From: Chitinophagales bacterium
GTDB taxonomy: Bacteria > Bacteroidota > Bacteroidia > Chitinophagales > BACL12
Direction of reading: 5' to 3'
DNA: 64,000 bases
Assembly: GCA_020636645.1 (NCBI GenBank)
Contig: JACJXO010000002.1
Coordinates: 99,375 to 163,374 of the forward strand
Shown here one piece after another: positions 2,811 to 19,019 of this stretch (positions are counted from its first letter, which is position 1; each line of letters begins with the position of its first letter). The notes beneath the pieces were generated by a model that was not told the origin of the DNA, did not search any database, and was given only the letters and a program-made list of their open reading frames with translations. Both the position numbers and the translations under genes were made by a program.

Positions 2811-4405
2811 GATCTCACCAGCTCTTTCTCCAGTGCTTCCAGGCTTTTGCCTTTGGTTTCAGGAACATAACGCCAGATGAACAGGAAACCCAGCAAAGCG
2901 AATACACCGTAAATGAAGAAGGTGGTTGCACTGCCCAGCTTTTCCAGCTCCCAGGGAAACACCAGTTGTACAATAAAACTCACAGCACTGTTGATCAGTC
3001 CTACAAAGGAAATAGCCAGCCCGCGAATTCGGTTGGGAAACAATTCAGAGAACAATACCCACATGACCGGTCCAATGGAAATAGCAAAGGATGCCACGAA
3101 GCCCAGAATACCTATCAGGATCAGAACCGGATTGATATGCAGGGCTGCATTGGAAAGTGTACTGCCATGTTCAGAGTAAAATGCAGTACCAAGCTGTTGT
3201 TCTGCTGCTTCCCGAAAAGCCTGTTCATCAGGGTAGGAATGATCATATAAAGCAGAGATGGATGCCTGATCTGCGGTAATGCCTGTTTTGGCAAACGCAG
3301 CTTCTGACAGGGAATATTCTGCAGCACGAAATCCGTAAGACAACAGGAACATGGACACCACAATTCCGGCCACACCCACGATGAGCAGCGGCTTGCGGCC
3401 AAACCTGTCTATGAACAGAATGGCCAGAACAGTGAATACCAGATTGGTTATACCTACCAGAATGGCCTGGACGAAAGAAGCATCTGTGCCGATGCCTGAT
3501 TGTTCAAATATCATGGGTGCATAAAAGAATACGGAATTGATACCTGTGATCTGTTGCAGTACAGCTACTACTATGCCGATGGTGATGACCAGGCGCAATG
3601 CCGGTTTGAACAGGTCAGCTACGCCTGCCTGTTTGCTGTGTTCTTTTTTACTTTCTTCTTCGATGCTCTGACGGATCTCTGCCATTTCGCGATCTGCTGT
3701 TTCGGCATTGGAGAATCGGGTCATGATCTTTTTGGCTTCTTCGAATCGACCCTTCAGGATAAGCCACCGCGGACTTTTCGGTACAAGAAATAGTCCGAAG
3801 AAGTACAGCACAGCAGGCAATGTTTCCAACCCGAGCATCCAGCGCCAGGGCTCGGTATCAATATGTGCCTTTTTTACCCATGCAGCATCAGACTGGCTGT
3901 AACGCAGAATCAGGTAATTGGTGAAGAATGCCAGGGAAATTCCGATCACGATATTGAGCTGGTTGAATGAGACCATGCGGCCACGCATTTCGGGCGGACT
4001 GATCTCTGCAATGTACATAGGTGCAATAATGAGCGAAGCACCCACACCAAAACCACCAATCATGCGGAAGATGACCAGCGACACAAAGTCAGGAGCCAGG
4101 GCAGAGCCGATGGCCGATATCGCATATAAAATAGCAGCATAGGTAAGCACCTTCTTCCTGCCGATGCGGTTACTCAAAGGTCCGCTTACCATCATGGCCA
4201 GCGTTGAGGTAAGGGTAAGTGAACTGACAGACCATCCTAGCTGGATCTTGGTCAGTTCAAATTTCGTTTCGATGAAACCCACCACACCGGAAATGACCGA
4301 TGCGTCGAATCCCATGAGCAGTCCGCCAAGGGCTACGATGAGGGCTATCAGCATCAGGCGATAGTTGCCTGTGCTGATGGGTTGTTCGTTCACAGGTGCT
4401 GCCAT
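2807..4405 (-). CDS. MFS sugar porter family transporter (sugar:H+ symporter) with an extended central cytoplasmic loop.
   Basis: Motifs GRKKVL, PKSPRWL and PETKGKSLE typical of sugar-porter MFS, about 12 TM helices. Its stop overlaps the start of the downstream GH by 4 bp. Confidence 0.85.
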   Translation of the reverse strand: MAAPVNEQPISTGNYRLMLIALIVALGGLLMGFDASVISGVVGFIETKFELTKIQLGWSVSSLTLTSTLAMMVSGPLSNRIGRKKVLTYAAILYAISAIGSALAPDFVSLVIFRMIGGFGVGASLIIAPMYIAEISPPEMRGRMVSFNQLNIVIGISLAFFTNYLILRYSQSDAAWVKKAHIDTEPWRWMLGLETLPAVLYFFGLFLVPKSPRWLILKGRFEEAKKIMTRFSNAETADREMAEIRQSIEEESKKEHSKQAGVADLFKPALRLVITIGIVVAVLQQITGINSVFFYAPMIFEQSGIGTDASFVQAILVGITNLVFTVLAILFIDRFGRKPLLIVGVAGIVVSMFLLSYGFRAAEYSLSEAAFAKTGITADQASISALYDHSYPDEQAFREAAEQQLGTAFYSEHGSTLSNAALHINPVLILIGILGFVASFAISIGPVMWVLFSELFPNRIRGLAISFVGLINSAVSFIVQLVFPWELEKLGSATTFFIYGVFALLGFLFIWRYVPETKGKSLEALEKELVRS

Positions 4406-4408
4406 AAG

Positions 4409-4453
4409 TAGCTTTTTGTAAAAATAACTATAAGTAGGAATTTTCCTACTTAT
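4409..4453. promoter_or_regulatory. Exact copy of the GTAGCTTTTTGTAAAAAT 18-mer (a half-site only), immediately followed by a 24-bp perfect palindrome ATAAGTAGGAA-TT-TTCCTACTTAT. It lies upstream of the MFS gene, in the gap after GH30.
   Basis: The 18-mer is identical to 14801-14818. The palindrome at 4430-4453 has 11-bp arms and a 2-nt centre. Located 25-48 bp upstream of the MFS start codon. Confidence 0.45.
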
Positions 4454-4464
4454 TGCACAAAAAA

Positions 4465-5892
4465 CTACCGGAGTATGCAGGTTTGAATGGCATGGGCGGG
4501 AATGGCCATTTTAGCAGATTCCTGACCGGTTTGAAGCTGGTAGGAGATCGGCAGATCGCTTTTGTTCATGACCACTACGGTAAGGCTGCCATCCGGATGC
4601 AGGTAAGCGGTGGTAAGCAGATCACTGTGATTGGTACCGGCTGCAACCCGTACTGCACCGGGTCTTATAAAACGGGAAAAATGCCCCAGGTAGTAATAGG
4701 CCGGGGTCAGCAGCAAGGTGTCTGATGCTACATCTGCGTGGATCGGAGCAAAGCAGTAATTGCCCACATGGTTAGGGCCGCCATACATATTGAGCATCAG
4801 GTTCCAGTCGGTCCAGGCAGTGGTACCATGGTTGAAGTCTTCTATGACAGCTTCGCCATATCGTTCGGCATGTGCCCAGCTACCCAGATATTCGCGTCTG
4901 AACAGCTCATTACATCCTTCAGTAAAGACCAATGCTTTATCGGAGAATGAGCTGTTCACCAGGCCCACATTCTCAAACATGGGCTCACCACCGGCCCAGG
5001 TCTCATACCAGTGAAAACCAACCCCCCACACATATGCAGAAGCTTCCGGATCGTTCAGGATGGTAGCAGCTCTTTGGAACAGCAGGTCACGGTTGTGATC
5101 CCACACGATCAGCTTCTTATCATCCATACCTGCTGCATGTAATGCCGGCCCCAGATGATCACGAACAAAATCACGTTCTTCTTCGGCGATATAGATACAG
5201 GATTCCCAGCGTTGCACAGCCATGGGTTCATTTTGTACCGTCAGACCCCATACCGGAAAGCCGGCTGCTTCATATTCCTGAATGAAACGTATATAATAAT
5301 TGGCCCAGGCAGTACGGTATTCAGGCAACAAACTTCCGCCGTGCAGCATATCCTTGTTCGTCTTCATGAAGGCCGGCGGACTCCAGGGGCTTGCGTACAG
5401 CAACAGGTCCTTACCTGCAACAGACTGTATATGCTGCAGCAGGGGAAAACGATAGGTCCGGTCATGATCAATGGAAAAGGTCTGCAGAGTACTGTCGCCT
5501 TCGGTAATGTAAGTATAACTTTCGGGCGAGAAATCACAGCTGTGTACAGGCACTCTGATCAGGTTGTATCCAAGCCCGTTTTTTTGATCAAAGCAGGCTT
5601 GTATGAATGCAGCACGTGTACTTTCACTGAGTGAATCATAGACCACAGCAACAGCGTCTGTTACAGCACCGCCCATACCGGTATGTACCTGAAAACGATG
5701 AGTAGTATCTGCAAAGACCACTCTTTCTGATTCGAGTGGCTGGACAGATCCTGCAGTGGGTATATCATCCAGCTGCTGCAACAGATGTTCGTTGCCCCTG
5801 GCGGTTTCATAGACCTGCCAGGTGTTCTTGTGCTGGGCGTGTACCTGAAGCACACACAGCCATACTACTGCAAGCAGGAAAAATTTTCTCAT
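4465..5892 (-). CDS. Glycoside hydrolase family 30 (glucosylceramidase-like), candidate beta-1,6-glucanase. Secreted.
   Basis: Signal peptide. GH30 hallmark ASPWSPPAFMK, plus LIRVPVHSCDFS. About 475 aa, typical GH30 length. Confidence 0.8.
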   Translation of the reverse strand: MRKFFLLAVVWLCVLQVHAQHKNTWQVYETARGNEHLLQQLDDIPTAGSVQPLESERVVFADTTHRFQVHTGMGGAVTDAVAVVYDSLSESTRAAFIQACFDQKNGLGYNLIRVPVHSCDFSPESYTYITEGDSTLQTFSIDHDRTYRFPLLQHIQSVAGKDLLLYASPWSPPAFMKTNKDMLHGGSLLPEYRTAWANYYIRFIQEYEAAGFPVWGLTVQNEPMAVQRWESCIYIAEEERDFVRDHLGPALHAAGMDDKKLIVWDHNRDLLFQRAATILNDPEASAYVWGVGFHWYETWAGGEPMFENVGLVNSSFSDKALVFTEGCNELFRREYLGSWAHAERYGEAVIEDFNHGTTAWTDWNLMLNMYGGPNHVGNYCFAPIHADVASDTLLLTPAYYYLGHFSRFIRPGAVRVAAGTNHSDLLTTAYLHPDGSLTVVVMNKSDLPISYQLQTGQESAKMAIPAHAIQTCILR

Positions 5893-6719
5893 TCTGCCTG
5901 ATAGCTGAAGGAACGTATCACGACCTCATGCTCCAGGCCATCAGACGGACCGGCACTTATCCAGGTCATGATCCAGAAATTGATACGTGCATTGGTGGTT
6001 TCGCCGGGTGCAGGAATGATGATGGGGTCTGAAGAGATACCGTTCTCATTCTTGACGCGAGGGGGATTGTCCAGATCAAAAAACCAGGAAGCAATGAGGT
6101 TATCAGGGTTGATACCTTCGCCGGAATAACTGTTCCAGACGATGATGCTATCGGTCCAAAGAAAAGAATGCGTACTCACACCTACCAGACTTCCGTCAGG
6201 TGTGTCAGCGTCGTAGGTACGTTCCGGATAATACGGTCCAAAGTTGAGGGGTTGAACAGAATAATGCAGTGTCTCTTCGGCCTCTGCATTTCCCCATTTG
6301 GCAAATTCAATATCGATCTCGCTGTTGCCATCGGTTTGAAAGGTATTGTTATCCCAGGTGAATAATCCCAATACAATGTTCTCCGGAATATTCTGAAGAT
6401 CTCCCTGCACCACCCAGGTATAAGTTCCGTAACCCATGGTATCACGGCTCACTACTTCAGAAGAATACCAGCGGCCGTCGTGCTCAGAAATGTGCATATG
6501 CAGATAACCATTTTCATCTACCCAGACATCTTCGTAACGACCGGAGAAATAGTTCGGGCCAGGACCCATGACACTGTTTTCAAAGATCTTGACATCCCAG
6601 AGGTAGCCTGAGAAATTCACTTCGTCGCCCTGACGTCCCAGCACATCTTCCGGATCAGATTGCGAACAGGACAGACTTAAGGAGATCAGGAACAGACCTG
6701 CTATATGTGTTGCTTTCAT
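5889..6719 (-). CDS. Glycoside hydrolase family 16 lipoprotein (laminarinase-type endo-beta-1,3(4)-glucanase).
   Basis: Lipoprotein signal (LSLSC). GH16 catalytic motif E-I-D-I-E (NSEIDIEFAKWGN). 276 aa. Confidence 0.8.
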   Translation of the reverse strand: MKATHIAGLFLISLSLSCSQSDPEDVLGRQGDEVNFSGYLWDVKIFENSVMGPGPNYFSGRYEDVWVDENGYLHMHISEHDGRWYSSEVVSRDTMGYGTYTWVVQGDLQNIPENIVLGLFTWDNNTFQTDGNSEIDIEFAKWGNAEAEETLHYSVQPLNFGPYYPERTYDADTPDGSLVGVSTHSFLWTDSIIVWNSYSGEGINPDNLIASWFFDLDNPPRVKNENGISSDPIIIPAPGETTNARINFWIMTWISAGPSDGLEHEVVIRSFSYQAE

Positions 6720-7915
6720 TTTGCTGATAGTTCTGAAGTCACATGAATGCTTCCCCAGGTAGAGGGGTTGCGTTCAAATGCCGGTTTGTCATCGCCGTTC
6801 CAACGATACCTGACCACCAGTTCTGATGACTGACGGTCCACTACGGCCACATCCAGCAGATAGTTTTCATCTTGTTCCCATTTGCTGATACCCAGCTCAC
6901 GGAATGACAGTTCTGCCGTTAAACGGTAACCGCTGGCGGTTTTTTCAAAAAGCACCGGACGTGCAAGGGTTTGCCGGTTCACGTCATCCCACACCAATCC
7001 GTTCTTCATGGCAGGCAGGAACAGCAACCGGTCGCTCAGAAACAGTTGTTTTCTGCTGTTATCCAGGTCCGGATTGGAAGAAAACGCCAGGATGAGTCCA
7101 TCGTTTTCCATTTTGGGCCATTCTTCAGAAGAGGTGCCAACATGTATGGCATCTTCTACTACCGCTGTCAGCACGATACTGCTGTCTGTCAAAGCCATCT
7201 GAACACCGGCACCGGGTTGGTCGAGCAGGGTCCGGCTACTACCGTTGTAACTGATATCAACTGAGCGATTGTTGTGCTCACCCAGGTCCACTACACGTAC
7301 ATCATCAATGTACACAACTCCATCTGCTTCCAGCTGGATGATGAGTTGTTTGACCATGCTGAGGTCTGCATGGAACATTTTCGTATCAAATGCTTTGAGG
7401 GGTACCTGTACCCTTGTCCATTGGCCGGTTATTTCCTGGTTGTCTATGAATTCAGGGAACACACCCGCCCATGCCTGTGCCCCGTTATAGTCTTCCAGTG
7501 CCATGGCCCAGGGCAGTCCTTTCAGGTTTCCGGAAGAGCTGCGTGCCATGAATTGTATAGCACCCCGGTCAACGATCTGACTCAGATTCTTGGAGGCCCA
7601 GCCATCCCATCCAAAACCGATTCCAAGCCAGCTGCAACCGGCCTGCTTATTCCATTGAAGCAACAGTGAACCGTTGCCATTGTCATTCAGATCAAATGCA
7701 TTGGTTACCTGCAGACAAGCTGCGGTATCAGGAGAGAACCAGAACTCATTGGTGATGTAATCGTTCCAGATATCAACGCTGTAGAAATTGCCAACATGAG
7801 ACAGTGTGTCTGCGGAAGCGGGCTGTTCATATACAGACATGGTCCGGAAGGAACAGGCGTGCAGGCTGCATACAAGCGGCAAAGTCAGCAACCAGATTCG
7901 TTCGTGATGGCTCAT
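6716..7915 (-). CDS. Secreted two-domain beta-sandwich protein, putative carbohydrate-binding or surface glycan-binding protein.
   Basis: Signal peptide. Trp/Gly-rich CBM-like N-terminal half (WLGIGFGWDGWASKN) and a second beta-rich domain. Embedded in the GH array with overlapping stop and start codons. Confidence 0.45.
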   Translation of the reverse strand: MSHHERIWLLTLPLVCSLHACSFRTMSVYEQPASADTLSHVGNFYSVDIWNDYITNEFWFSPDTAACLQVTNAFDLNDNGNGSLLLQWNKQAGCSWLGIGFGWDGWASKNLSQIVDRGAIQFMARSSSGNLKGLPWAMALEDYNGAQAWAGVFPEFIDNQEITGQWTRVQVPLKAFDTKMFHADLSMVKQLIIQLEADGVVYIDDVRVVDLGEHNNRSVDISYNGSSRTLLDQPGAGVQMALTDSSIVLTAVVEDAIHVGTSSEEWPKMENDGLILAFSSNPDLDNSRKQLFLSDRLLFLPAMKNGLVWDDVNRQTLARPVLFEKTASGYRLTAELSFRELGISKWEQDENYLLDVAVVDRQSSELVVRYRWNGDDKPAFERNPSTWGSIHVTSELSAK

Positions 7916-8916
7916 GGTTTCAGCGGACCGTTTTCGGTGAAGATGATGAGATCCATGAGTGCCTGCGCATAACCGGAAACCGGATTGGCCAGCATCAGTA
8001 TGCTCACCTGTATCAGTTTATCCGGTTCGTTCAGACCATTTCCAATTGGATCGGCGGGAGCGCCATTCACCAGCGTGACGAGATCAGCATAGCGTGCAGA
8101 GATCAGTTGCCAACCATCCTGATCATTCAATGCTACTTCCAGTGAGAACATATCTTCTTCTCCATCAGTATATACACCATCGCCATTATCATCTTCCCGG
8201 AACTGGAACAGCACCAGTGCATTGCTCAGGTCGGGCTGTTTGGACAGCAACACATTGAAATAGATATTATCCGGATTGGTTGCCAGGTCAAAGGTTGGAG
8301 CACCATAAGCACTTCCCGGAATATCGATCAGACCAATGAGCCAGTCCCAGCCCACTTCTCCTCCCATATCGTAGTAGGATCCGCCCTGTGCGGCATTTTC
8401 ATCGGTACGGATCACAAAGCTCATGTCAGCACCTGACTGAACGAAGCTTCCCCATCCAGGGTTCCAGCCGGCCTCAAAATCTTCCAGCAGAAGGCCTTCC
8501 ACAGGTCGGGCGGTCTCTACAGAAACGGAAGTTTCATATACTTCTTCTTCTGTTTCAAAAGTGAGTGATACGTCACATGCTTCTGGCCTGAACATGGGCA
8601 ACTGGGTGGTGGTGCCATCCCAGGTAGCGTTTGATGCATCCAGGGTCCTGGAAAATCCGGTTATTGTCTTCACAGCACCGGATTCCTGTCCGGTGATGGT
8701 CAGGGTCCAGTTTATGTTCTTCGAGAACTCTGCGGTGAAAACGGCTTTTTCACCAGCGGCGAAATCGATCTCTGAATCATTTACGGCAAGTGCCTGCAAC
8801 AGGTTGAATTCGCCATAGAGATCATTAAGATCCGGACCGTCAAACAGATCAGTTTCACGGGTACATCCTGCCAGAAGGAGGGTGCTTATTGCGGTTATAA
8901 GTGCTATTCTTTTCAT
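7912..8916 (-). CDS. Surface lipoprotein, SusE/F-like surface glycan-binding protein candidate.
   Basis: Lipobox MKRIALITAISTLLLAGC. CBM-like acidic Trp-rich domain (LLLEDFEAGWNPGWGSF...). Position in the locus. Confidence 0.45.
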   Translation of the reverse strand: MKRIALITAISTLLLAGCTRETDLFDGPDLNDLYGEFNLLQALAVNDSEIDFAAGEKAVFTAEFSKNINWTLTITGQESGAVKTITGFSRTLDASNATWDGTTTQLPMFRPEACDVSLTFETEEEVYETSVSVETARPVEGLLLEDFEAGWNPGWGSFVQSGADMSFVIRTDENAAQGGSYYDMGGEVGWDWLIGLIDIPGSAYGAPTFDLATNPDNIYFNVLLSKQPDLSNALVLFQFREDDNGDGVYTDGEEDMFSLEVALNDQDGWQLISARYADLVTLVNGAPADPIGNGLNEPDKLIQVSILMLANPVSGYAQALMDLIIFTENGPLKP

Positions 8917-8918
8917 AT

Positions 8919-10649
8919 TCAGAATTCCATTGAGAATAAGAGTGCTAACTGAGAAACGCCATAAGCAGGTAATGTGCCAATGACATTGCTAGTGCCAAAG
9001 TTGTTGTACTGCCCCATGACATACACCTGATCGCTGAAACGGTAACGGATACCTGCGCCACCCATCCACTGAGATCCATCTGCATTGAATTCATTAAAGT
9101 TGACAATATCTCCGTAGGCATCTGTCTGGTTCATGAATTCAAAACCACTGTATGAATGATATAACAATCCGGCTACCAGATCTGTTTTCTCCAGGATCTC
9201 TATTTCCAGTCCGGTGCCAGCTATCATCGTGCTGAGATCAACAGATGGAACGCCTTCCTGATCTGCCGGCCTGGAGGTGTTATCCATCCGTAAAGAAACG
9301 GAAGCCTTCAATGCTCTCGTTTTGTTTTTACTATAGCTTTCCTGCTCCCAGTTCAGACGTGCTTCAAGCCTGTTGAATTGCCTGTAACTGGTGGTTCCCT
9401 GACCCCTTACCTCAGTAAGCATAAGTCCATTCAGGTTGGCACTCAGCCGGTCATCCAGCAGTTTGCAGGTAGCGTTTGCCTGCAGCCCCTGTCTGTTGGG
9501 TGTGGCTGCACCGTAAGGAGTGATGTTATCATATCGTGGATCATAGACCATCAGACCTTCGCTGAGTTGCAGGTTGTACAATGATGATTCACGGATCAGG
9601 TCCAGCATGGTCAGAGAACGCACCAGCTGGTTATTGGTAAGACGATCAAAGGCTGCAGGATAGGCGTCAAACAACACACGCTTGGTCTGTGCACCCGGAC
9701 TTCTGAAATCCGGTCCTACCCATTTGTACCCTGCAGAGATGCTCAGTTTACCCCCGGCATCCTGCAGTTGAAACATCAGGTCAGAAAAGACATCAGACCG
9801 TTCAGGTGCCAGCGGATCTTCCAGGTAGCGGGTTTGCGACATACCTGCTTCCAGATCGCCGGAAAGGGTCCAGTTGCCAAAGCTTTTTTCGCTGCTCAAT
9901 GATGCGGTGTACACAGGGTTCTGCAACAGAATATCATTGCGTGAAGTACCCTTCAGGTCATACAGACTGGCGTAGGTAAATGCACCTGACAGATACGCTC
10001 CCTGCACCCATTCTATACTGGCTGAGCTGAACAGGCGGTCGCTTACCGTGGCAAAATTGGACGGCATGACCCTGCTGGTGAAGAGGTGCATATCTGCCGA
10101 TTCGATGACAGACCGGAAGTTGAATCCGAAGTCAACCGCGGCGCCCTGCTGCCTCCAGCTGTGATCCAGATTTTGGAAATTATCGTACATGACCTGATCG
10201 CTCAGATGTGCAAGCAGAACAGGCGACAGGTCATATAGTTCCTGATCGTTGTTGTAGAGGGTGTATTTGGTCAACTGATAATTGATATCGCCCAGCTGGT
10301 AGCGCACAACTTTGTTCAGCACACCTTTAAGGTAAAGCTGGCGTATATCGAATGTGACACCCGCACCCCAGAATCCACCAAAATCATTGCGGATGCGCAC
10401 CATTCCCTGGATCTCAAGATCTTCAGACGGACGGATATTCACACCGATATCAGCCAGCGCATGTCCGCTGTTCTGCCGGGGTGGAGTAACCGTGTCGGGC
10501 TCTGCCAGTTCCTGTTCCAGCACATCAGCAAAGTATATGGAACGGGCGGCACCATTCACGGTGAACTTGGGAGTTGTCTGTTGTGCCTGCACTGCGGTTG
10601 AAAGGCAGAGCAGCGTACAGAAGATTCCTGTGGTCAATTGTTTATGCAC
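8919..10649 (-). CDS. Outer-membrane beta-barrel protein (porin-like), candidate oligosaccharide channel. GTG start.
   Basis: Signal peptide ending AVQAQQ. Alternating-hydrophobicity beta-strand pattern throughout. C-terminal ...LLFSMEF with terminal Phe. 576 aa, too small for SusC. Its start overlaps the upstream stop by 1 nt (TAGTG). Confidence 0.55.
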   Translation of the reverse strand: MHKQLTTGIFCTLLCLSTAVQAQQTTPKFTVNGAARSIYFADVLEQELAEPDTVTPPRQNSGHALADIGVNIRPSEDLEIQGMVRIRNDFGGFWGAGVTFDIRQLYLKGVLNKVVRYQLGDINYQLTKYTLYNNDQELYDLSPVLLAHLSDQVMYDNFQNLDHSWRQQGAAVDFGFNFRSVIESADMHLFTSRVMPSNFATVSDRLFSSASIEWVQGAYLSGAFTYASLYDLKGTSRNDILLQNPVYTASLSSEKSFGNWTLSGDLEAGMSQTRYLEDPLAPERSDVFSDLMFQLQDAGGKLSISAGYKWVGPDFRSPGAQTKRVLFDAYPAAFDRLTNNQLVRSLTMLDLIRESSLYNLQLSEGLMVYDPRYDNITPYGAATPNRQGLQANATCKLLDDRLSANLNGLMLTEVRGQGTTSYRQFNRLEARLNWEQESYSKNKTRALKASVSLRMDNTSRPADQEGVPSVDLSTMIAGTGLEIEILEKTDLVAGLLYHSYSGFEFMNQTDAYGDIVNFNEFNADGSQWMGGAGIRYRFSDQVYVMGQYNNFGTSNVIGTLPAYGVSQLALLFSMEF

Positions 10650-12628
10650 TAGAAAAATATTTTAATTTCTACCATAGTTTCCTGGCCCTGAAATGCATCA
10701 TCGGCAAAACTGGCATCTTCAAATGCGAACCATCGGTGACGCAGATACAGGCGGGCATTAAATCCCAGATCGATATCCAGGCCGGCGCCATATCCTGTAC
10801 CGGTCTGATTTCGGGGTCTTCTGCTTTCTTCATCAATATCTGTCAGATAGTTGCCCAGGGTTCTTTCATAGCCTGCATAGCCAGAAATCAGTATCCGGTC
10901 GCCCAGTTCCAGATAGGCTTCCAGTTCATTGGCATATTGCCTGATGTAAGCTTCTTCGCTGGTAACCGTAAAGGCTGAGAACGATCGTTGTACTGAAGAA
11001 TAGTATCCCAGATAGAACAGGTAAATATTCTTGCCGAATACTTTGGAATGGTATTTTACCTGCGGTTCAAATACGCTGAAGAACTTCTTGTTGATGACCA
11101 CTCCGGAACTGTCGTCAAAGAGGTTTACGGTCTCATAGACATCGCGGTATATGACCGAATAACGCTGGTAAGGCCCCACTTCTGCAGGAAACAGCCAGCG
11201 CCACATGCGGCTTCTGGTCAGTTGATTGACAGGATGTCCATAAGTGATGACCGAAGAAATGGGTTCCAGTTCTGCCTGTGCAGCCAGACCGATATTGAAT
11301 TTAAAATCACCCAGGGTGTATTCCATATTCAGATCTGCTCCCTGTCGGTTATTAGACATCTGACCGATGCGCAGCATAGAACTGCCGAATGGCTGCAATA
11401 CCGCAGTGCTGCCTATTGTTCCGGCAGGTAATGCTGCAGGATTGTACTCTCGGATAGCAGTATTGAGAAAAATGGAATTGTCATTGATGACCTTCGGACT
11501 GATATAGAAATAGTGCAGGCTCCATCGGGGCAATGTCTTCTTCGCAGGTGTGGTCAGGGTAGCGGATATCAGCCCTCCGTTGCCGGCATCTTGCACCGGA
11601 CTGAAGTAATTTCCCAGTCCACCTTCGGCCAGCAATGAAAATCCTTTCATATGCACCATCCACTCCAGGGTGGTGAGGTGAAATCCTACCTTTTCTTCCG
11701 ACAGACTATCGGCCCAGGTGGTAGCATGCAAACTGTTGATGCTGATGTACTGTCCGGGTCCTGTTTTCTTTTGCAGTTTTCCCCCATAAGTATAACTTGG
11801 CCAGGGACTGAAGCCTCCGTTGAATTCAGATTTACCCACCAGGGCAGTAAAGGAAAGGTCTTTGGGAAGGCCGTTTCCATCCAGTATCAAACCCTTGAAT
11901 GCCCGGTTTCCCCAACGGGTATCCTGGTTGATACCACCTTCGTTGAAATAGGTCTCGTAGCGGGCCGGCAAAGAAGCTCCTGCCGGATCCCATGGATTGC
12001 GTTCAAACAGTGTAAAGCGATTATATCCCCTGAAAGAAGCCATGGTCAGGTCAGACAAACGCACCCAGTGAATGCCGCCTGCCCGCAAGGTAAATGTGCC
12101 GGAGCGGGTTTCCTGGATACCGGTAAAGTTCAGCCCGAGATTCAGGTTCATCTGTCCGCCAAGGCGTGTTCCGCTTAATGGATCCTGAAAAGAGGGACGA
12201 AGTGAATCCGGCACTTGTGCCCCATAGGTGGTGCCGATGGCACCATTGAGAAACTGAAAGGCAAACACATCAAATGAAAATGAAGTATGCGGAGCAGGTT
12301 TCCCGGAGATGGTGAGTTGCAGATTTGGAAGCTGGCTGTCATCACCAATGAAGAGACTGGCTGGCAATACAGTATCATTAATAACAGGATTCAGCACATA
12401 GGGAAGGTCATGTGTGGTATAGGTGGCAAAGAAGCGGTAAAATCCTGACACAGAGATCTTTCTGAGCGGCGATGGTTCTTCTGCAGGACGGATGCCCAAT
12501 GCAGTTTCCGTACTGTCTTCTACCTGTGCTACAGCTGTGTTGGCAGCCATCATACAGATCAGTATCAGCCACATGATAAAGCTGCCTGATACAAACATTT
12601 TCAGATTAGACGTACGGGTTCCTGACAT
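10649..12628 (-). CDS. Outer-membrane beta-barrel protein (porin-like), second copy. Not a TonB-dependent transporter.
   Basis: Probable true start at the internal Met (MFVSGSFIMWLILICMMAANTAVAQ, about 12598). Beta-strand periodicity. C-terminal VEIKIFF. No TonB box or plug. Confidence 0.55.
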   Translation of the reverse strand: MSGTRTSNLKMFVSGSFIMWLILICMMAANTAVAQVEDSTETALGIRPAEEPSPLRKISVSGFYRFFATYTTHDLPYVLNPVINDTVLPASLFIGDDSQLPNLQLTISGKPAPHTSFSFDVFAFQFLNGAIGTTYGAQVPDSLRPSFQDPLSGTRLGGQMNLNLGLNFTGIQETRSGTFTLRAGGIHWVRLSDLTMASFRGYNRFTLFERNPWDPAGASLPARYETYFNEGGINQDTRWGNRAFKGLILDGNGLPKDLSFTALVGKSEFNGGFSPWPSYTYGGKLQKKTGPGQYISINSLHATTWADSLSEEKVGFHLTTLEWMVHMKGFSLLAEGGLGNYFSPVQDAGNGGLISATLTTPAKKTLPRWSLHYFYISPKVINDNSIFLNTAIREYNPAALPAGTIGSTAVLQPFGSSMLRIGQMSNNRQGADLNMEYTLGDFKFNIGLAAQAELEPISSVITYGHPVNQLTRSRMWRWLFPAEVGPYQRYSVIYRDVYETVNLFDDSSGVVINKKFFSVFEPQVKYHSKVFGKNIYLFYLGYYSSVQRSFSAFTVTSEEAYIRQYANELEAYLELGDRILISGYAGYERTLGNYLTDIDEESRRPRNQTGTGYGAGLDIDLGFNARLYLRHRWFAFEDASFADDAFQGQETMVEIKIFF

Positions 12629-12666
12629 ACCGATCAGTTCTGTTGGAATGATAAATGTACTACTTT

Positions 12667-12681
12667 TTGTACTTTTTACAA
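12667..12681. promoter_or_regulatory. Second TTGTA-N5-TACAA palindrome (CTTTTTGTACTTTTTACAA) in the 71-bp gap between the GH at 12700 and the outer-membrane protein at 12628.
   Basis: Same half-sites and spacing as the site at 14809-14823. One of only two gaps wider than 4 bp in the 11-gene array. Confidence 0.45.
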
Positions 12682-12699
12682 TTAGTACCTGAATTTTTT

Positions 12700-14061
12700 T
12701 TAGAGCGACTGTTCCCGCAGCTGGATTGCCTTCTGGTATTGCTCACCTGAAGGATCGGGCAGGACATAAAAAGGTATGTTCAGGTATGCGTAATGATTGG
12801 CTGCATCATAGACATACAGGAACAGGCGGTAGGCACCTTCACTTTGCGGAGCTCGGAAACTTACCTGCTGGCTGTCTTTTCGCATGCCCAGACCTTTCAC
12901 GGAGGGCGGACGGGATTCTGCATCGCCACCGGCTTTTATATCCTGGCTTTCACTCACCACTTCCCAGATGAATTTCATCTGATCGCCGTCTGCATCTGTC
13001 ACAGTTGCCAGTGCCTGGCAGGGTTGCCCTGGTTGCAGAATGATGTCTGCACCTTTTGACTGTCCGTTTAGCGAAGCGGAAGCAATGGCAGGTGCCCTGT
13101 TGGCAGGTTCCTTTCCTGTCCAGGCTCTGATCAGCTCATCTATGGCTTCAGACTGGCGGCCGTCTTCAGAGAGCAGGCCATACCAGGTAGAGGTGGTTTC
13201 CTGTTTTTGTCCCCACAGGAAGACATAAGACCCCACGCATTTAACCCTGTCGCCGGCTATATAATTATTATATCTTGCTTTGTAGGAAGCGGCTTTTTCA
13301 CTGCTGCTCTGCTCTACAGGAGCATTCCATTTTGTCTTGCTGACCTCCCAGTGTCCGTTGGGCCCCCATTCACTGATGATGTATGGCCCTTGCCAGCCGG
13401 CAGACCGGATGGTATCAGGCACAATTCCAATGTCTCCGTATGTGTTTATACCGTATATATCAATAGAAGGAGCGTTGGCCATGATGAGTCTCACTTCAGC
13501 AGGATCCAGTCCTGCCGTAACGGTAGAAGTAGGATGGTTGGGATCAATCTGATGGATCATGGCAGCTATATCTTCAATGGCGTTCCAGACCTTTGTATTG
13601 CTGTAGAACAGATCCACTTCATTACCAACACCCCACAGCAAGAGGGCGGGGTGGTCTTTATAGGTCTTTACCACTTCTGTGAAATAGTCCAGCTGAGCCT
13701 TCACTTTGGATTCATTGTCATAGTCAAACCCATGTCTTTCATGCTGAACCCATAGGCCAAGCATGACCGTCATACCCAGGCGTTGTGCTTCATCAAGTAA
13801 TTCACCGGCATCATCCGGACTCCAGGTCCGGAAACTGTTGGCACCGCATGCTGCTGCCAGATCCAGGTGGTCTGTACCTCCAACACCGTTTATATAGTAT
13901 GGCTCACCATTGCGGTATAACTGCCACTGACCTTCGCTGTTCATGCCTACCGTAACAGGTATTGCCTGACCAGAAACAAGCACTGGGAGGAACAATAGTG
14001 AAGCCAGCAACCAGGACAAACGGCTATGATGCGATATGCGTTTCATGAATGGTATGATCAT
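12700..14061 (-). CDS. Secreted clan GH-A glycoside hydrolase with a C-terminal beta-sandwich (GH158-like architecture). Paralog of 1515..2810.
   Basis: Signal peptide. HERHGFDYD and WGVGNEVDL motifs shared with the paralog. C-terminal domain similarity (DADGDQ..F.WEVV). Overlaps the regulator's stop by 38 bp. Confidence 0.6.
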   Translation of the reverse strand: MIIPFMKRISHHSRLSWLLASLLFLPVLVSGQAIPVTVGMNSEGQWQLYRNGEPYYINGVGGTDHLDLAAACGANSFRTWSPDDAGELLDEAQRLGMTVMLGLWVQHERHGFDYDNESKVKAQLDYFTEVVKTYKDHPALLLWGVGNEVDLFYSNTKVWNAIEDIAAMIHQIDPNHPTSTVTAGLDPAEVRLIMANAPSIDIYGINTYGDIGIVPDTIRSAGWQGPYIISEWGPNGHWEVSKTKWNAPVEQSSSEKAASYKARYNNYIAGDRVKCVGSYVFLWGQKQETTSTWYGLLSEDGRQSEAIDELIRAWTGKEPANRAPAIASASLNGQSKGADIILQPGQPCQALATVTDADGDQMKFIWEVVSESQDIKAGGDAESRPPSVKGLGMRKDSQQVSFRAPQSEGAYRLFLYVYDAANHYAYLNIPFYVLPDPSGEQYQKAIQLREQSL

Positions 14062-14740
14062 ACGTGAATAATCGGGCAGGTCGATGCGATACGTCTTCCT
14101 GGAACAGCTCTGTTTCTACCAGGTAAGGCATCTCATGAAGCTTTTTTCTGAAATTCCCTTTGTCATAAGAACGGTTCAGTACTACCTCAAAGAACTGCTG
14201 CAATTCTGAAAGCGTGAAGAACTGAGGCAGCACAGCTTCCCACAGCGGCCTGCGCCGGGTGCTGTGCTGCGTGCGGTGTCTTAGTTTATCCAGGGCGTAG
14301 CGAATGATGTCTGCATGGTCAAAGGTCAGTTCCGGAATGTCATCAAGCGAAAACCATTGAGCTTTATTGGCCCAGTGTGACGGCTGCGGCTGCACATCCA
14401 GTTTGTTGACAATTGCGTAATATCCAATGGTTACCACCCGTCTTCCCGGCACCCTGTCAGCTTCTCCGAAGGCGTGTGCCTGCTGCAGAGGAATATGAGC
14501 AAGTCCGGTCAGGTCTCGCAGTACACGATGGGCTGCTTCATCAATGTCTTCCTGAGGATAGACAAGATCTCCCGGAAGTGCCCAGGACCCCTGAAGCTCT
14601 TCAGCACCTATTTCTATGAGCATGACCTCCAGTGACTGTACCCCGTAGCCAAACACTACACAGTCAATGGAAACCTCCATCATGCGGTCATTGTCCTGAG
14701 GCTTCTTCCTCCTGTTGGCATTATCGAAGTTGTTTTTCAT
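14024..14740 (-). CDS. NUDIX-domain transcriptional regulator of the NrtR family (AraR-like sugar-responsive type), with a C-terminal winged-helix domain.
   Basis: N-terminal NUDIX-like fold (GSWALPGDLVYPQEDIDEAAHRVLRDLTGL) and a C-terminal wHTH-like region. It is the first gene of the minus-strand array, divergent from the repeat-protein genes. An alternative start at MMEVSID is possible. Confidence 0.65.
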   Translation of the reverse strand: MKNNFDNANRRKKPQDNDRMMEVSIDCVVFGYGVQSLEVMLIEIGAEELQGSWALPGDLVYPQEDIDEAAHRVLRDLTGLAHIPLQQAHAFGEADRVPGRRVVTIGYYAIVNKLDVQPQPSHWANKAQWFSLDDIPELTFDHADIIRYALDKLRHRTQHSTRRRPLWEAVLPQFFTLSELQQFFEVVLNRSYDKGNFRKKLHEMPYLVETELFQEDVSHRPARLFTYDHTIHETHIAS

Positions 14741-14800
14741 CTGTTGTTGAATGAATCTTTCTACAAATGTGCTGCAGAAAGTCCTGTTTAGCTAAAATAG

Positions 14801-14823
14801 GTAGCTTTTTGTAAAAATTACAA
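14801..14823. promoter_or_regulatory. Candidate NrtR-type operator in the divergent promoter: 18-mer GTAGCTTTTTGTAAAAAT containing the palindrome TTTGTAA-AAA-TTACAAA (core GT-N7-AC).
   Basis: Perfect inverted repeat with 7-bp arms, between the regulator start (14740) and repeat-protein gene 1 (14911). The same 18-mer recurs at 4409-4426. Confidence 0.5.
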
Positions 14824-14910
14824 ATTCTTTTTCCAACTTTTTGTATTTTATACTAAAAGGGATATTTTTACTGAGTAAATAGCAGCTATAACCTTTTAAA
14901 ATTCCTACCA

Positions 14911-16506
14911 ATGAGATCCATTTTTACCTTCTTTGCAGCTGTTCTGCTCTCCACAGCCGCAATGGCTCAGACCTACAATGTCACCTTCCGGGTTGACATG
15001 AATGAAGTAGGTGACCCTTACACAACTCCTGAAGTAAACGGCAGCTGGGATGGCTGGTGTGGCGGTTGTACTCCGCTGGAAGATCCTGATGGTGATGGTG
15101 TGTGGACCATTACCAAAACACTGGATGCAGGCTTTTATGAGTATAAGTTTGCCTTTGACAGCTGGGCCGGATCTGAGACCCTGGCTCCGGGCTCATCCTG
15201 TACCATTACCACCGGTGGCTTTACCAACCGCTTTGTTGATGTGACCGGCGATGTTGCCCTCGATACCGTATGTTATGGTGCCTGTACTACCTGTTCAGAA
15301 GCCGTCACATATGACATCACTTTTTATGTGAACATGAATGAAGTAGGCGATCCTTATACCACTCCTGAAGTGAATGGTAACTGGGACGGCTGGTGCGGTG
15401 GTTGTACTCCGCTGGAAGATCCTGACGGAGATGGTATCTGGAGTATAACCAAGTCTCTCTCTCCCGGTACCTATGAATACAAGTTTGCCTATGACAGCTG
15501 GACAGGTTCAGAGAACCTCGCCCCCGGTACAGACTGTACCATCACCACCGGAGGCTTTACCAACCGGATTATAACTGTAGATGCAGATGCTGCCCTCCCG
15601 GTAGTATGCTGGGGAAGTTGCAGCAACTGCGGAGAGGCTGTACTGTATGATGTAACCTTCCAGGTCAACATGAATGAAGTGGCTGATCCGTTCACCACAC
15701 CAGAAGTGAATGGTACTTTCAATGGTTGGTGCGGCGGTTGTGCGCCTATGTCAGATGGCGATGGCGACGGTATCTGGGAGATCACCATTCCTCTGGAAGC
15801 CGGCACGTATGAATATAAATTTGCATATGATAGCTGGGCAGGACAGGAAACCCTGACTCCCGGCGATCCTTGTACTATGACCACTGATGTATTCACCAAC
15901 AGGGTGATCACCATCAGCGAAGAAACTGTGATAGGTGCAGTATGCTGGGGCAGCTGCGACAATTGTGTTGTGGCTACCTGCGAGCTTCCGTCTGATGTGA
16001 CCATTGACTATGTAGGAGGTACCGGCACGGAAGCAACCGTTACCTGGACCGCTGTACCTGGTGCTACCCAGTACGGACTCCGTTATCGTGAACTTGGTAC
16101 TCCTGAATGGCTTAAAAAAGCTACCACAGGTACCGGTGTTTTCCTGATCGGCCTGACCCCTGGTGCAACATATCAGTATCAGATGGTAAGCCGCTGCGGT
16201 GAAGACCGTGCAGGCCCCGGTTCCATTGCTACCTTCACTACTCCTACCAGAATGGGACAGTTTGGTTCTGATGACTGGATGGTATATCCTAATCCAAGCA
16301 ATGGTACCTTCCAGCTGGTTTCTTCAGGTCTGTCAGAACAAGCCATGCTGATGGTCATGAATGTGGCAGGTCAGCAGGTGTATGAGACCATGATCACCAA
16401 CGACAGCCAGACCATAACCCTGAATGGCCTTGCCGATGGCTTGTACACCCTGGTAATCGTTGCAGGTGAAAGTATGTCTGCAACTACCATTTCCATTCTG
16501 CAATAA
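14911..16506 (+). CDS. T9SS-secreted protein with 3 tandem copies of a roughly 112-aa six-cysteine repeat domain (CBM-like), then Fn3, then a T9SS C-terminal sorting domain.
   Basis: Signal peptide AAMAQ. The repeat (TF.VDMNEV.DP.TTPEVNG.WDGWCGGCTPLEDPDGDG.W...YEYKFA.DSW.G.E.L.PG..CT.TTG.FTNR.....VCWGSC) is seen three times. Fn3-like TVTWTAVPGATQY. CTD VYPNPSNGTFQL...ISILQ. Confidence 0.8.
   Translation: MRSIFTFFAAVLLSTAAMAQTYNVTFRVDMNEVGDPYTTPEVNGSWDGWCGGCTPLEDPDGDGVWTITKTLDAGFYEYKFAFDSWAGSETLAPGSSCTITTGGFTNRFVDVTGDVALDTVCYGACTTCSEAVTYDITFYVNMNEVGDPYTTPEVNGNWDGWCGGCTPLEDPDGDGIWSITKSLSPGTYEYKFAYDSWTGSENLAPGTDCTITTGGFTNRIITVDADAALPVVCWGSCSNCGEAVLYDVTFQVNMNEVADPFTTPEVNGTFNGWCGGCAPMSDGDGDGIWEITIPLEAGTYEYKFAYDSWAGQETLTPGDPCTMTTDVFTNRVITISEETVIGAVCWGSCDNCVVATCELPSDVTIDYVGGTGTEATVTWTAVPGATQYGLRYRELGTPEWLKKATTGTGVFLIGLTPGATYQYQMVSRCGEDRAGPGSIATFTTPTRMGQFGSDDWMVYPNPSNGTFQLVSSGLSEQAMLMVMNVAGQQVYETMITNDSQTITLNGLADGLYTLVIVAGESMSATTISILQ
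14968..15975 (+). repeat. 3 x 336-bp coding tandem repeat, one protein domain per unit.
   Basis: Units begin near 14968, 15304 and 15640. Nucleotide identity is high but with third-position divergence. Confidence 0.75.
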
Positions 16507-16515
16507 ATTTCATCC

Positions 16516-16541
16516 GGGGAGCTGACAATCAGCTCCCCTTT
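16516..16541 (+). terminator. Intrinsic terminator after repeat-protein gene 1 (GGGGAGCTG-acaat-CAGCTCCCC-TTT).
   Basis: 9-bp GC-rich stem and 5-nt loop, 10 bp after the stop codon. Short T run. Confidence 0.55.
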
Positions 16542-16554
16542 AAACACTACCCAA

Positions 16555-19014: not shown

Positions 19015-19019
19015 GTAAA

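Follow-up and report, generated by a model that had tools for sequence, protein, structure and literature searches.

A Nudix-type regulator of the NrtR/AraR family and its candidate operators at a putative beta-glucan locus of Bacteroidota

Genes of the locus

The gene array on the minus strand of the window (the whole 64-kb stretch of DNA that was analysed) is headed by a gene encoding a 238-aa regulator of the NrtR/AraR family (14024–14740), in which Pfam and PDB matches identified a degenerate Nudix domain and a C-terminal winged helix. The initial annotation had assigned a NUDIX fold and a C-terminal wHTH, the NrtR architecture, to this protein, in agreement with the Pfam matches to NUDIX (1.8e-8), NrtR_WHD (8e-19) and AraR_C (2.7e-9). 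The NUDIX match lies above the gathering score and the N-terminal region aligns with the Nudix domains of 5bs6 and 3gz5; the NrtR-type winged helix-turn-helix scored 68 bits against a cut-off of 27. The closest solved relative is AraR of Bacteroides thetaiotaomicron (BtAraR, 5bs6, E=4.5e-41, residues 18–228); Shewanella oneidensis NrtR (SoNrtR, 3gz5) matched with E=3.8e-16. The Nudix box REUXEE reads RVLRDL in the regulator, and its recognition helix is DKGNFRKK, compared to DKRNFRKR in BtAraR. According to the alignment with BtAraR, the DNA-contact residues K179, N181, R183 and K184, the wing residue R205 and the dimer-interface residue Val92 (here V102) are retained.

Three narrower assignments were considered for the regulator. 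An ADP-ribose-responsive NrtR proper was rejected, since the NCBIfam model NF050029 (NtrR equivalog) scored 112 bits (cut-off 400) and the locus holds no NAD genes. Orthology to AraR was likewise rejected: the triad Arg34/Arg86/His131 aligns to Ile44, Arg96 and His142, Phe36 and Phe49 are replaced by Ala46 and Leu59, and there are 0 ara genes among the ten genes of the array and the three divergent genes. Comparison with XylR (BT0791-type) was by gene content only; the locus contains no xylA/xylB, and the best equivalog of the MFS gene, XylE, stayed below its cut-off (369 against 608).

The regulator gene overlaps by 38 nt with the gene for a GH158 glycoside hydrolase (GH158a, 12700–14061, minus strand), and the two are probably co-transcribed. 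GH158a displays full-length similarity to solved enzymes of this family (PDB 9oro, 'Glycoside hydrolase family 158', E=8.3e-102, residues 32–432; 6pal, E=4e-79), and the last gene of the array (GH158b, 1515–2810, minus strand) encodes a predicted paralog with 44% identity to it (E=4e-130). These matches correct the earlier gene annotation, as does the absence of a SusC/SusD pair from the locus: no TonB-receptor, Plug or SusD family match was obtained for any array gene.

Between the two GH158 genes, all on the minus strand, lies first a gene for an outer-membrane beta-barrel of 659 aa that belongs to no named family (10649–12628), predicted from its signal peptide, its C-terminus (..KIFF) and a structure model. 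It had no sequence match in Pfam, NCBIfam or the PDB. The AF2 model (pLDDT 73.6) resembles porins at the level of the fold only, with porins as top Foldseek matches (5ldt, 8.5e-10) at TM values of 0.3–0.47. The adjacent gene (8919–10649) encodes a secreted protein of 576 aa ending in ..SMEF that is co-conserved in 54 loci; no family match was found in Pfam, NCBIfam and further searches, and its N- and C-termini suggest that it is probably a second outer-membrane barrel. Three lipoproteins are predicted from their N-termini: one of 334 aa (LLAGC; 7912–8916) with no assigned family, co-conserved in 47 loci, one of 399 aa with a CBM30-like domain (6716–7915; Pfam CBM30, 7.4e-10), and one of 276 aa with no assigned family (5889–6719). 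They are followed by a GH30 glycoside hydrolase (4465–5892; Pfam Glyco_hydro_30, 1.4e-73), whose best NCBIfam match is an endo-1,6-beta-glucanase of the BT3312 type (224 bits, under the 700-bit cut-off), and by an MFS sugar porter (2807–4405; Sugar_tr, 1.8e-110; TIGR00879 sugar porter above cut-off).

Divergent from the array, three genes on the plus strand (14911–20051; individually 14911–16506, 16555–19014 and 19062–20051) encode T9SS-secreted proteins with CBM48/X25-type modules. Their Pfam domains are X25_BaPul_like, AMPK1_CBM, CBM_48 and Por_Secre_tail, and homologs occur in 70–74 of 83 related loci. Taken together, the two GH158 enzymes, the GH30 enzyme, the sugar porter and the novel outer-membrane proteins point to a locus for beta-glucan degradation. 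Judging from the GH158 and GH30 set and from a variant locus (L055) in which GH16 and GH30 are found under a related regulator, the substrate is most likely beta-1,3/1,6-glucan.

A 23-bp palindrome in three intergenic gaps

The motif TTGTA-N5-TACAA had been noted in two gaps of the locus. This core was confirmed, but the full motif is longer, a 23-bp palindrome CTTwTTGTA-N5-TACAAwAAG with a symmetry that reaches 9+9 bp and with the arm TACAAwAAG as its best conserved part in the window and in other loci. In the 64-kb window the exact core occurs only twice, both times within the locus. To score whole sites, a matrix was built from 61 sites of other genomes only. The training sites were picked by a regular expression for the core from loci that had themselves been found via the regulator, which makes site counts there partly circular; the window and the simulated nulls are independent of this. 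The matrix gave exactly four matches in the window (18.8–31.1 bits, next best 4.2), all located in three intergenic gaps of the locus. Among the 37 intergenic regions of the window, scores of at least 10 bits were restricted to these three gaps, and 2000 simulated 300-bp sequences of intergenic composition did not exceed 9.3 bits. The sites in the window are not explained by chance. As the initial annotation had pointed out, GT-N7-AC is the published operator core of NrtR regulators; this core and a 21-bp palindrome are stated for the family (PMC2330246), and GT-N7-AC is present in all four sites, near the regulator's own gene and its candidate targets. The motif also shares the half-site spacing and the TGTA/TACA core with the validated BtAraR operators, GTGTA-N5-TACAC (PMC4666351).

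Two of the sites lie in the 170-bp divergent region (14741–14910). Candidate operator A (14805–14827; minus strand GAATTTGTA-ATTTT-TACAAAAAG; 28.8 bits) is placed on the presumed regulator/GH158a promoter and encloses the perfect palindrome TTTGTAA-AAA-TTACAAA that had been noted before and that was located at 14807–14823. A candidate -7 box (TATTTTAG, 14792–14799, minus strand) can be read from the sequence in a TTG-N21-TAnnTTTG-like arrangement, as in other loci. The second site, candidate operator B (14837–14859; plus strand CTTTTTGTA-TTTTA-TACTAAAAG; 24.7 bits), had been overlooked. It would cover the promoter from which the divergent T9SS genes are read, and a candidate -7 box (TATTTTTA, 14863–14870, plus strand) is suggested there by the spacing TTG-N19-TA. 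The two operators are 32 bp apart, and 19 related loci likewise have paired sites ahead of the regulator, mostly at a distance of 34–36 bp.

Candidate operator C (12663–12685; minus strand CTAATTGTA-AAAAG-TACAAAAAG) is the best match of the window with 31.1 bits. Its core TTGTACTTTTTACAA (12667–12681) is the TTGTA-N5-TACAA copy reported earlier for the 71-bp gap (12629–12699) upstream of the outer-membrane genes. A candidate -7 box (TACATTTA, 12652–12659, minus strand) was read from the sequence 3 nt past the operator; exact TAnnTTTG boxes occupy the equivalent place in many orthologous gaps. Sites also occur upstream of homologs of the 659-aa barrel in 22 loci. This arrangement supports operator C as the mark of an internal promoter of a putative outer-membrane/lipoprotein/GH30 operon.

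In the 59-bp gap upstream of the MFS gene (4406–4464), the initial annotation had seen an exact recurrence of an 18-mer with only one half-site. The 18-mer GTAGCTTTTTGTAAAAAT does occur twice only, at 14801–14818 and at 4408–4425 (originally placed at 4409), with an expected number of matches, allowing up to 3 mismatches, of 0.06. The gap, however, contains a full, degenerate site, candidate operator D (4412–4434; minus strand CTTATAGTT-ATTTT-TACAAAAAG; 18.8 bits), that agrees with the extended palindrome at 16 of its 18 arm positions, keeps GT-N7-AC and is conserved in an ortholog, where TTGTT-ACATT-TACAAAAAG lies upstream of the MFS gene (locus L004). By analogy with other loci, a candidate -7 box (TACTTATG, 4403–4410, minus strand) would include the annotated MFS ATG (4405–4403). 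Because of this promoter geometry and the alignment with L004, the true MFS start is probably Met18 (ATG 4354–4352). Operator D has a poor -33 element (TAG), and its gap to the -7 candidate is atypically short (1 nt).

The same gap is predicted to fold at the RNA level. A terminator-like hairpin (AAGTAGGAA-AA-TTCCTACTT, 4432–4451, minus strand), followed by a U-rich run, lies past the GH30 stop codon, and the RNA fold of the entire gap reached -26.1 kcal/mol. Inverted repeats might thus act in RNA, as hairpins, terminators or attenuators instead of DNA operators, a reading favored by the nested hairpin of this gap (z = -5.4) and by the pairing of the operator arm ACAAAAAGCTAC with an inverted near-copy at 4456–4467. 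We regard it as exceedingly improbable: the N5 palindromes form A/U stems of just 5 bp, too weak to be relevant, the sites are positioned upstream of the presumed transcription starts, and no Rfam RNA family was found at them. Across genomes, moreover, the arms are conserved by sequence, without compensatory change, next to a variable loop.

The position of the sites relative to promoter elements is recurrent. The TTG of the upstream arm is followed after 19–21 nt by a TAnnTTTG-like box, and in many genomes a -7 box of the TAnnTTTG type lies 2–5 nt past the palindrome, which supports the internal promoters suggested initially. The Bacteroidota promoter consensus is TTTG/TAnnTTTG, as cited in PMC2483708. 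Since the TTG/TTTG of the upstream arm fits a -33 element at this distance, the motif could be a mere AT-rich promoter feature and not specific to the regulator. This, too, is very improbable, as the window's remaining 34 intergenic regions scored -0.8 bits or less, the best conserved arm TACAAwAAG is not a promoter element, and the symmetry extends over both 9-bp arms.

Conservation and co-occurrence with the regulator

A total of 189 sites was found in 82 related loci (1.2 Mb), compared to 0–2 in simulations, and 72 of these loci carry at least one site; in 13 of the 82 no site of at least 12 bits lies upstream of the regulator. By place, 78 sites fall into the divergent region between regulator and T9SS genes, 32 are upstream of further T9SS genes, 27 upstream of GH158 genes and 22 upstream of the gene for the porin-like protein. 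The regulator gene adjoins GH158 in 65 of 83 related loci, and conservation of the module extends over Flavobacteriales, Chitinophagales and Sphingobacteriales. In orthologous loci with 65–71% regulator identity, the palindrome arms are kept in the corresponding gaps while the 5-bp spacer varies. Three of them (L001, L003 and L004) retain the arms, among them those of operator C, with variable spacers at the equivalent three positions.

We also performed a reverse search, yielding 120 metagenome stretches that contain the palindrome in perfect form. NrtR-linked contexts comprised ten of the regulon type and two of canonical NrtR, in which nrtR lies beside an operon of pncA, a nucleotidyltransferase-like gene and pnuC. 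In 110 of the 120 no homolog of the locus was present in the fetched stretch, and half of those matches fall inside ORFs; perfect copies of the palindrome also occur outside the regulon. A four-locus phage-integrase group was also recurrent among the 120 stretches.

The many metagenome contigs that have a perfect palindrome, but in which no NrtR gene was detected within the stretch retrieved, would fit operators of another transcription factor with its gene elsewhere, such as a global catabolite regulator; the Nudix-wHTH protein would then bind something else or nothing. We consider this quite unlikely. Motif and regulator gene co-occur in 72 of 82 loci from several orders, and the motif fits both the family-typical GT-N7-AC palindrome of 21 bp (PMC2330246) and the geometry of the validated BtAraR operators. 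The NrtR-linked contexts of the reverse search are NrtR-family regulons, and the cluster has no second conserved regulator gene. As the arrangement of regulator and palindrome is repeated in dozens of further genomes of Bacteroidota, the palindromes are very probably operators of the adjacent Nudix-type regulator. The operator status first proposed for two of the sites is supported by their conserved arms, and comparative genomics likewise favors the suggestion that a single regulator governs the hydrolase array as well as the divergent T9SS genes.

Proposed regulation and comparison with known systems

The regulator is likely an AraR-like, catalytically dead, sugar-sensing repressor that controls four units from four operators over core promoters and is released by sugar. 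A regulator dimer would bind the four 23-bp operators, each placed on a Bacteroidota sigma-A core promoter such that the promoter-upstream arm supplies its TTG as the -33 element and a TAnnTTTG-like -7 box follows 1–5 nt past the other arm. As the operators would span the -33/-7 promoter, the bound repressor is expected to occlude RNA polymerase. Operator A would control regulator and GH158a, and thereby the regulator itself; operator B the three divergent T9SS carbohydrate-binding proteins; operator C the porin-like barrel, the second barrel, the three lipoproteins and GH30; and operator D the MFS sugar porter and GH158b. A substrate-derived sugar entering the Nudix pocket may rotate the wHTH domains and free the DNA, as L-arabinose does in BtAraR. 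We infer the direction of regulation, and the weak -33 element (TAG) at operator D could mean dependence on a bound factor, as expected if the protein were an activator or a dual regulator and not a simple repressor. Such a role is unlikely, since the sites extend from -33 nearly to the -7 box, a placement classically associated with occlusion, and the characterised NrtR and BtAraR proteins are repressors released by ligand (PMC4666351).

The closest known system is BtAraR (BT0354), the L-arabinose-responsive NrtR-family repressor of B. thetaiotaomicron (PMC4666351; PDB 5bs6, 5dd4, 5ddg, 5deq). Both proteins have two domains, a degenerate Nudix box and a near-identical recognition helix; the operators share the geometry xTGTA-N5-TACAx within a palindrome of ~21–25 bp, with multiple or tandem sites per promoter region, and control of a sugar-utilisation locus together with the regulator's own gene is proposed here as well. 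In contrast to BtAraR, the outer half-site base is T (TTGTA) and not G (GTGTA), and the intercalating Arg180 is replaced by Gly. Lys179 of BtAraR contacts the outer G of GTGT; here this base is T despite the retained lysine, and base-level recognition by AraR is thus not simply transferable. The arabinose ligands Arg34, Phe36 and Phe49 are exchanged for Ile, Ala and Leu, with Arg86 and His131 kept; therefore, the ligand cannot be read from AraR. In place of ara genes, the candidate targets are GH158, GH30, the MFS porter, porin-like proteins and T9SS glycan-binding proteins.

Xylose genes are the predicted targets of BtXylR (BT0791) and the Bacteroidetes-1a/1c NrtR groups (PMC2330246, PMC3878776). 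These are likewise sugar-locus NrtR paralogs of Bacteroidetes, in which the regulator heads the regulated operon and a XylE-related MFS porter belongs to the regulon. By gene content they differ from the present locus, which lacks xylA/xylB and belongs to a group with GH158 commonly beside the regulator. Canonical NrtR (S. oneidensis, PDB 3gz5/3gz6; NAD-salvage regulons) shares the fold and the GT-N7-AC palindrome, and the exact 23-bp palindrome CTTTTTGTA-N5-TACAAAAAG precedes the operon of pncA, a nucleotidyltransferase-like gene and pnuC beside nrtR in metagenome stretches L140 and L174. The sub-threshold equivalog score and the gene content set the present regulator apart from it, and its best alignment is to the compact, sugar-binding AraR type. 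Compared to the laminarin/beta(1,3)-glucan loci of Bacteroidota (GH158, GH16 and GH30 PULs, PMC7157763), the enzyme set is similar (GH158 and GH30 here, GH16 in L055), but two unnamed barrels and three lipoproteins take the place of the SusC/SusD pair. BguR of marine laminarin loci (bioRxiv 10.64898/2026.01.10.698779) is membrane-spanning, whereas the regulator described here is a cytoplasmic Nudix-wHTH protein.

We tentatively suggest, as a possibility falling somewhat short of probable, that the regulator represents a third specificity branch of Bacteroidota NrtR/AraR proteins that senses a hexose or oligosaccharide originating from glucan (glucose, laminaribiose or gentiobiose), with one 23-bp operator co-ordinating a SusC/SusD-independent uptake apparatus, T9SS proteins and GH158/GH30. 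If so, the sensed ligand would be neither a pentose nor ADP-ribose, and the two novel outer-membrane barrels and three lipoproteins would form a previously undescribed uptake apparatus. The regulon is new; the regulator is of an already known kind.

Gene content and conservation of the locus

The regulator, a protein of 238 aa with matches to the Pfam families NrtR_WHD (8e-19), AraR_C (2.7e-9) and NUDIX (1.8e-8), is encoded by the first gene (14024-14740, minus strand) of an array on the minus strand. The following genes encode a 453-aa hydrolase (12700-14061), two large proteins of 659 and 576 aa, predicted lipoproteins of 334, 399 (with a CBM30-like domain) and 276 aa, and, at the end of the array, a GH30 enzyme (4465-5892), an MFS sugar porter (2807-4405) and a paralog of the first hydrolase (1515-2810). 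A weak Pfam match to Glyco_hydro_2_C had suggested a GH2-type enzyme for the first hydrolase; this assignment was replaced by GH158 after a sequence search of the PDB (9oro, E=8.3e-102; 6pal, E=4e-79). The GH158 paralog closing the array shares 44% identity with it. Characterized GH158 members are endo-beta-1,3-glucanases. The top NCBIfam match of the GH30 enzyme was the BT3312-type endo-1,6-beta-glucanase, under the equivalog cut-off.

Divergently from the array, three tandem paralogs (14911-20051, plus strand) encode proteins with CBM48/X25/AMPK1_CBM modules, a C-terminal T9SS sorting domain and a near-identical N-terminal module, QTYN[VI]TFRVDMNEVGD..TPEVNG..GWCGGC. Their matches are to modules of the starch/glycogen type, although beta-glucan is what the enzymes in the regulon suggest. 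Beyond the last T9SS gene lie a tRNA gene (20444-20515, minus strand), a gene for a NYN-domain protein (20953-21615) and an open reading frame (22630-23142) with a weak match to an integrase Arm DNA-binding domain; this stretch (20444-23142) may represent the edge of a mobile element.

Sequence searches against Pfam, NCBIfam and the PDB returned no family for the 659-, 576-, 334- and 276-aa proteins and none for the 399-aa protein beyond its CBM30-like domain. The 659- and 576-aa proteins, encoded by adjacent genes (8919-12628, minus strand) with homologs in the related loci L001 and L004-L083, both carry a signal peptide and both end in an aromatic residue (..KIFF and ..SMEF, respectively). 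An AlphaFold model of the 659-aa protein (41-sequence alignment, pLDDT 73.6, pTM 0.72) consisted almost entirely of long antiparallel strands and matched the outer-membrane porins MOMP, Occ, ScrY, chitoporin and AlgE in Foldseek with a probability of 1.0, but with TM scores of only 0.3-0.47, that is, with no close structural relative. The protein models as a large porin-like beta-barrel of an unnamed family, and with the signal peptides on both proteins, the label "outer-membrane genes" used in the initial annotation is reasonable. No SusC/SusD pair occurs in the locus; the barrel/lipoprotein block, which comprises both large proteins and the three lipoproteins and is kept in 42-63 of 83 loci, seems to take its place in this glycan locus.

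Scans of genome and metagenome contigs with the single regulator protein yielded no close relatives, and an alignment of the regulator clade was needed as query to recover them. In species-representative genomes, the alignment query confirmed 547 relatives of the regulator and gave 80 further loci; in 52 of these a strict TGTA-N5-TACA lies upstream of the regulator gene, at most 400 bp away. The closest orthologous loci, L001, L003 and L004 (the latter from Bacteroidetes bacterium UBA3022; regulator identities of 71%, 65% and 70%), share the gene order of the window and carry TTGTA-N5-TACAAAAAG at matching intergenic positions with different 5-bp spacers. By tblastn with the window proteins, the module is conserved in metagenome-assembled genomes labelled Flavobacteriales, Chitinophagales, Sphingobacteriaceae and others: homologs of the regulator were detected in all 83 loci, of the T9SS CBM proteins in 70-74, GH158-like homologs in 65, and of the 659-aa, 576-aa, 334-aa and CBM30-like proteins in 63, 54, 47 and 42 loci, respectively. 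A variant regulon with a related regulator was observed in Flavobacteriales genomes, namely in L055 (Croceimicrobium; 8075-20004) and L078. In L055, the order is regulator, SSF transporter, MFS porter (67% identical to that of the window), GH16, GH30 and a protein of 1148 aa that has no assigned family; a T9SS CBM48 gene is divergent, and the site reads TTGTA-N5-TACAC.

Four palindromic sites in three intergenic gaps

The initial annotation had placed a perfect palindrome in the 170-bp divergent region, a TTGTA-N5-TACAA copy in the 71-bp gap upstream of the outer-membrane genes, and an exact 18-mer repeat of the first site in the gap upstream of the MFS gene. All three are present, at 14807-14823, at 12667-12681 (TTGTACTTTTTACAA), and at 14801-14818 and 4408-4425, respectively. 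In the collected sites the flanks are palindromic as well, giving a 23-bp consensus of CTTwTTGTA-N5-TACAAwAAG. A weight matrix was derived from 61 unique sites of other loci; neither the window nor L002, which is nearly identical to it, contributed sites. With this matrix, exactly four places in the 64-kb window scored as sites: operator C (12663-12685, read on the minus strand, 31.1 bits), operator A (14805-14827, minus, 28.8 bits), operator B (14837-14859, plus, 24.7 bits) and operator D (4412-4434, minus, 18.8 bits). The next best match (24085-24107) reached 4.2 bits. The inventory of two and a half sites thus becomes four. Operator B had not been listed, and operator D, previously taken as a half-site only, matches 16 of 18 arm positions with the GT-N7-AC core intact; along transcription it reads CTTATAGTT-ATTTT-TACAAAAAG, and an equivalent, TTGTT-ACATT-TACAAAAAG, lies upstream of the MFS gene of L004. 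Since operator D is a full site, the 18-mer combines a single 9-bp arm with an identical, AT-rich spacer and four bases of flank.

The palindrome might be a general feature of promoters, as which it would occur at comparable density in AT-rich promoters elsewhere; within the sequence available it did not. Among the 37 intergenic regions of the window (~7 kb, 44.5% GC), scores of at least 10 bits were obtained only in the three gaps of the locus and all remaining regions scored at or below -0.8 bits, and no score above 9.3 bits arose in 2000 sequences of 300 bp simulated with the dinucleotide statistics of intergenic DNA. On these scores, a general promoter feature was rejected as the explanation. 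An RNA structure was likewise rejected as an explanation of the N5 palindromes.

In 82 related loci (1.2 Mb), 189 sites of at least 15 bits were found compared to 0-2 in Markov-simulated copies, a count that is partly circular because the matrix was derived from the same loci; this circularity affects neither the result for the window nor the simulated null. At least one site occurred in 72 of the 82 loci, and a site upstream of the regulator in 69. By placement, 78 sites lie in the regulator/T9SS divergent region, 32 upstream of further T9SS genes, 27 upstream of GH158 and 22 upstream of the 659-aa gene. Two sites precede the regulator in 19 loci, mostly 34-36 bp apart, the spacing in the window being 32 bp.

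A reverse search of metagenome contigs for the perfect 18-base palindrome returned 120 stretches, 10 of them with homologs of this locus, and the T9SS CBM protein was the biggest gene family flanking the sites (7 members). On two further stretches, L140 (6670-6700, 8950-9813) and L174 (1607, ~4678), an identical 23-bp palindrome, CTTTTTGTAAAAAATACAAAAAG, occurs 2-3 kb from a canonical nrtR gene (287 aa), with cdaA and ybbR also on the contig. There the site heads an operon for a pncA-type isochorismatase, an enzyme similar to cytidylyltransferases and a PnuC-type transporter, so that one operator sequence seems to be shared by distant branches of NrtR whose regulons differ. Where a regulator gene lies close by, the two recurrent contexts are both NrtR-family regulons. 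In a group of four (L085, L103, L115 and L191) the perfect palindrome adjoins a 399-aa phage-integrase-family gene, 55-60 bp upstream of it, and no homolog of this locus was detected on these stretches. The other matches were heterogeneous, with half inside open reading frames and GC contents of 0.15-0.69. As most matches were either unrelated or within open reading frames, the palindrome also occurs outside this regulon and is not specific to it; the reverse search supports enrichment rather than exclusivity, and yields no clean regulon.

Predicted operators on candidate core promoters

In 23 aligned loci, the sites upstream of the 659-aa gene read CTTATTGTA-N5-TACAAAAAG; TAnnTTTG comes 2-5 nt later, often as an exact match (TATGTTTG, TACATTTG, TACTTTTG). 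The housekeeping promoter motifs of Bacteroidetes are TTTG at -33 and TAnnTTTG at -7 (as cited in PMC2483708). As 19 nt separate the TTG in the upstream arm from the TA in the -7 box, the operator would span -33 to just short of -7, and bound regulator would exclude RNA polymerase from the promoter. The candidate promoters of the window are TTG-N21-TATTTTAG for operator A (minus strand, -7 box 14792-14799), TTG-N19-TATTTTTA for operator B (plus, 14863-14870), TTG-N19-TACATTTA for operator C (minus, 12652-12659) and, with TAG for TTG, TACTTATG for operator D (minus, 4403-4410). Operators A and B would each serve one of two back-to-back promoters in the divergent region.

The annotated start codon of the MFS gene (4405-4403) falls inside the candidate -7 box of operator D, and Met18 (ATG 4354-4352) corresponds in the alignment to the second Met of the protein from L004. 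If this promoter is real, Met18 is probably the true translation start. The 59-bp gap between the GH30 and MFS genes also forms a nested inverted repeat (4403-4470; RNA fold -26.1 kcal/mol, z = -5.4), in whose outer stem the operator arm ACAAAAAGCTACT pairs with an inverted near-copy, GGTAGTTTTTTGT (4456-4467), beginning at the GH30 stop codon; in L004, too, an orphan TTTTTGTA arm directly follows the stop codon of its own GH30 gene. The repeat may be a terminator or an auxiliary half-site, or it may be the scar of a duplication.

Where genes overlap or are separated by short gaps, the arrangement points to four transcription units, which would comprise the regulator and the first GH158 gene, the three T9SS genes, the stretch from the 659-aa gene to GH30, and the MFS gene with the second GH158 gene. 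The initial proposal that one regulator controls both the array and the divergent genes from such sites is supported, corrected to four sites, a 23-bp motif and predicted operators that lie on candidate core promoters.

Comparison with NrtR and AraR

The regulon, comprising GH158/GH30, novel outer-membrane proteins and T9SS glycan-binding proteins, appears undescribed in the literature searched, in which no regulator of the Nudix type was found linked to GH158 or to loci of the laminarin type. It provides a regulatory argument for the function of the unnamed, conserved block that apparently replaces SusC/SusD, and bears on the control of beta-glucan use in freshwater and soil Bacteroidota. With four predicted operators, one predicted repressor and few candidate sugars, the system is simple and testable, and since four sites stand without background in 64 kb, the motif can serve to map out the regulon across hundreds of genomes of environmental Bacteroidota.

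The nearest solved protein is BtAraR of B. thetaiotaomicron (5bs6, E=4.5e-41), with Shewanella NrtR next (3gz5, E=3.8e-16). BtAraR acts as a repressor until L-arabinose releases it; the dimer spans 25 bp, and its validated operators, AGTGTATTTGATACAC, AGTGTTACTTTTACAC and AGTGTAAAAAAGACACT, are of the form GTGTA-N5-TACAC and occur in tandem (PMC4666351). For NrtR, a 21-bp palindrome with a GT-N7-AC core was described, and for the Bacteroidetes branches only pentose (Ara, Xyl) loci are listed (PMC2330246). An arabinose or xylose locus of the AraR/XylR type was rejected, as ara/xyl genes are absent and the arabinose-binding Arg34 is lost; for BtXylR (BT0791) the comparison covered locus content, and the regulator may form a separate branch or be XylR-like. 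Two of the arabinose ligands of BtAraR, Arg86 and His131, are kept (R96 and H142), whereas Arg34, Phe36 and Phe49 are replaced by Ile, Ala and Leu. From these residues, the effector is probably a sugar other than L-arabinose; a probable non-pentose effector, too, appears undescribed in the literature searched. The Nudix signature REUXEE reads RVLRDL, which makes hydrolase activity unlikely, as in NrtR and AraR.

The motif described here shares its geometry and its TGTA/TACA core with the BtAraR operators. The recognition helix reads DKGNFRKK compared to DKRNFRKR in BtAraR: the DNA contacts Lys179, Asn181, Arg183, Lys184 and the wing Arg205 are conserved, whereas the intercalating Arg180 is replaced by Gly. 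This type of regulator, this type of operator and the likely mechanism all have precedents in NrtR and BtAraR; regulator and mechanism belong to a known kind, and the main result is therefore an extension rather than a surprise.
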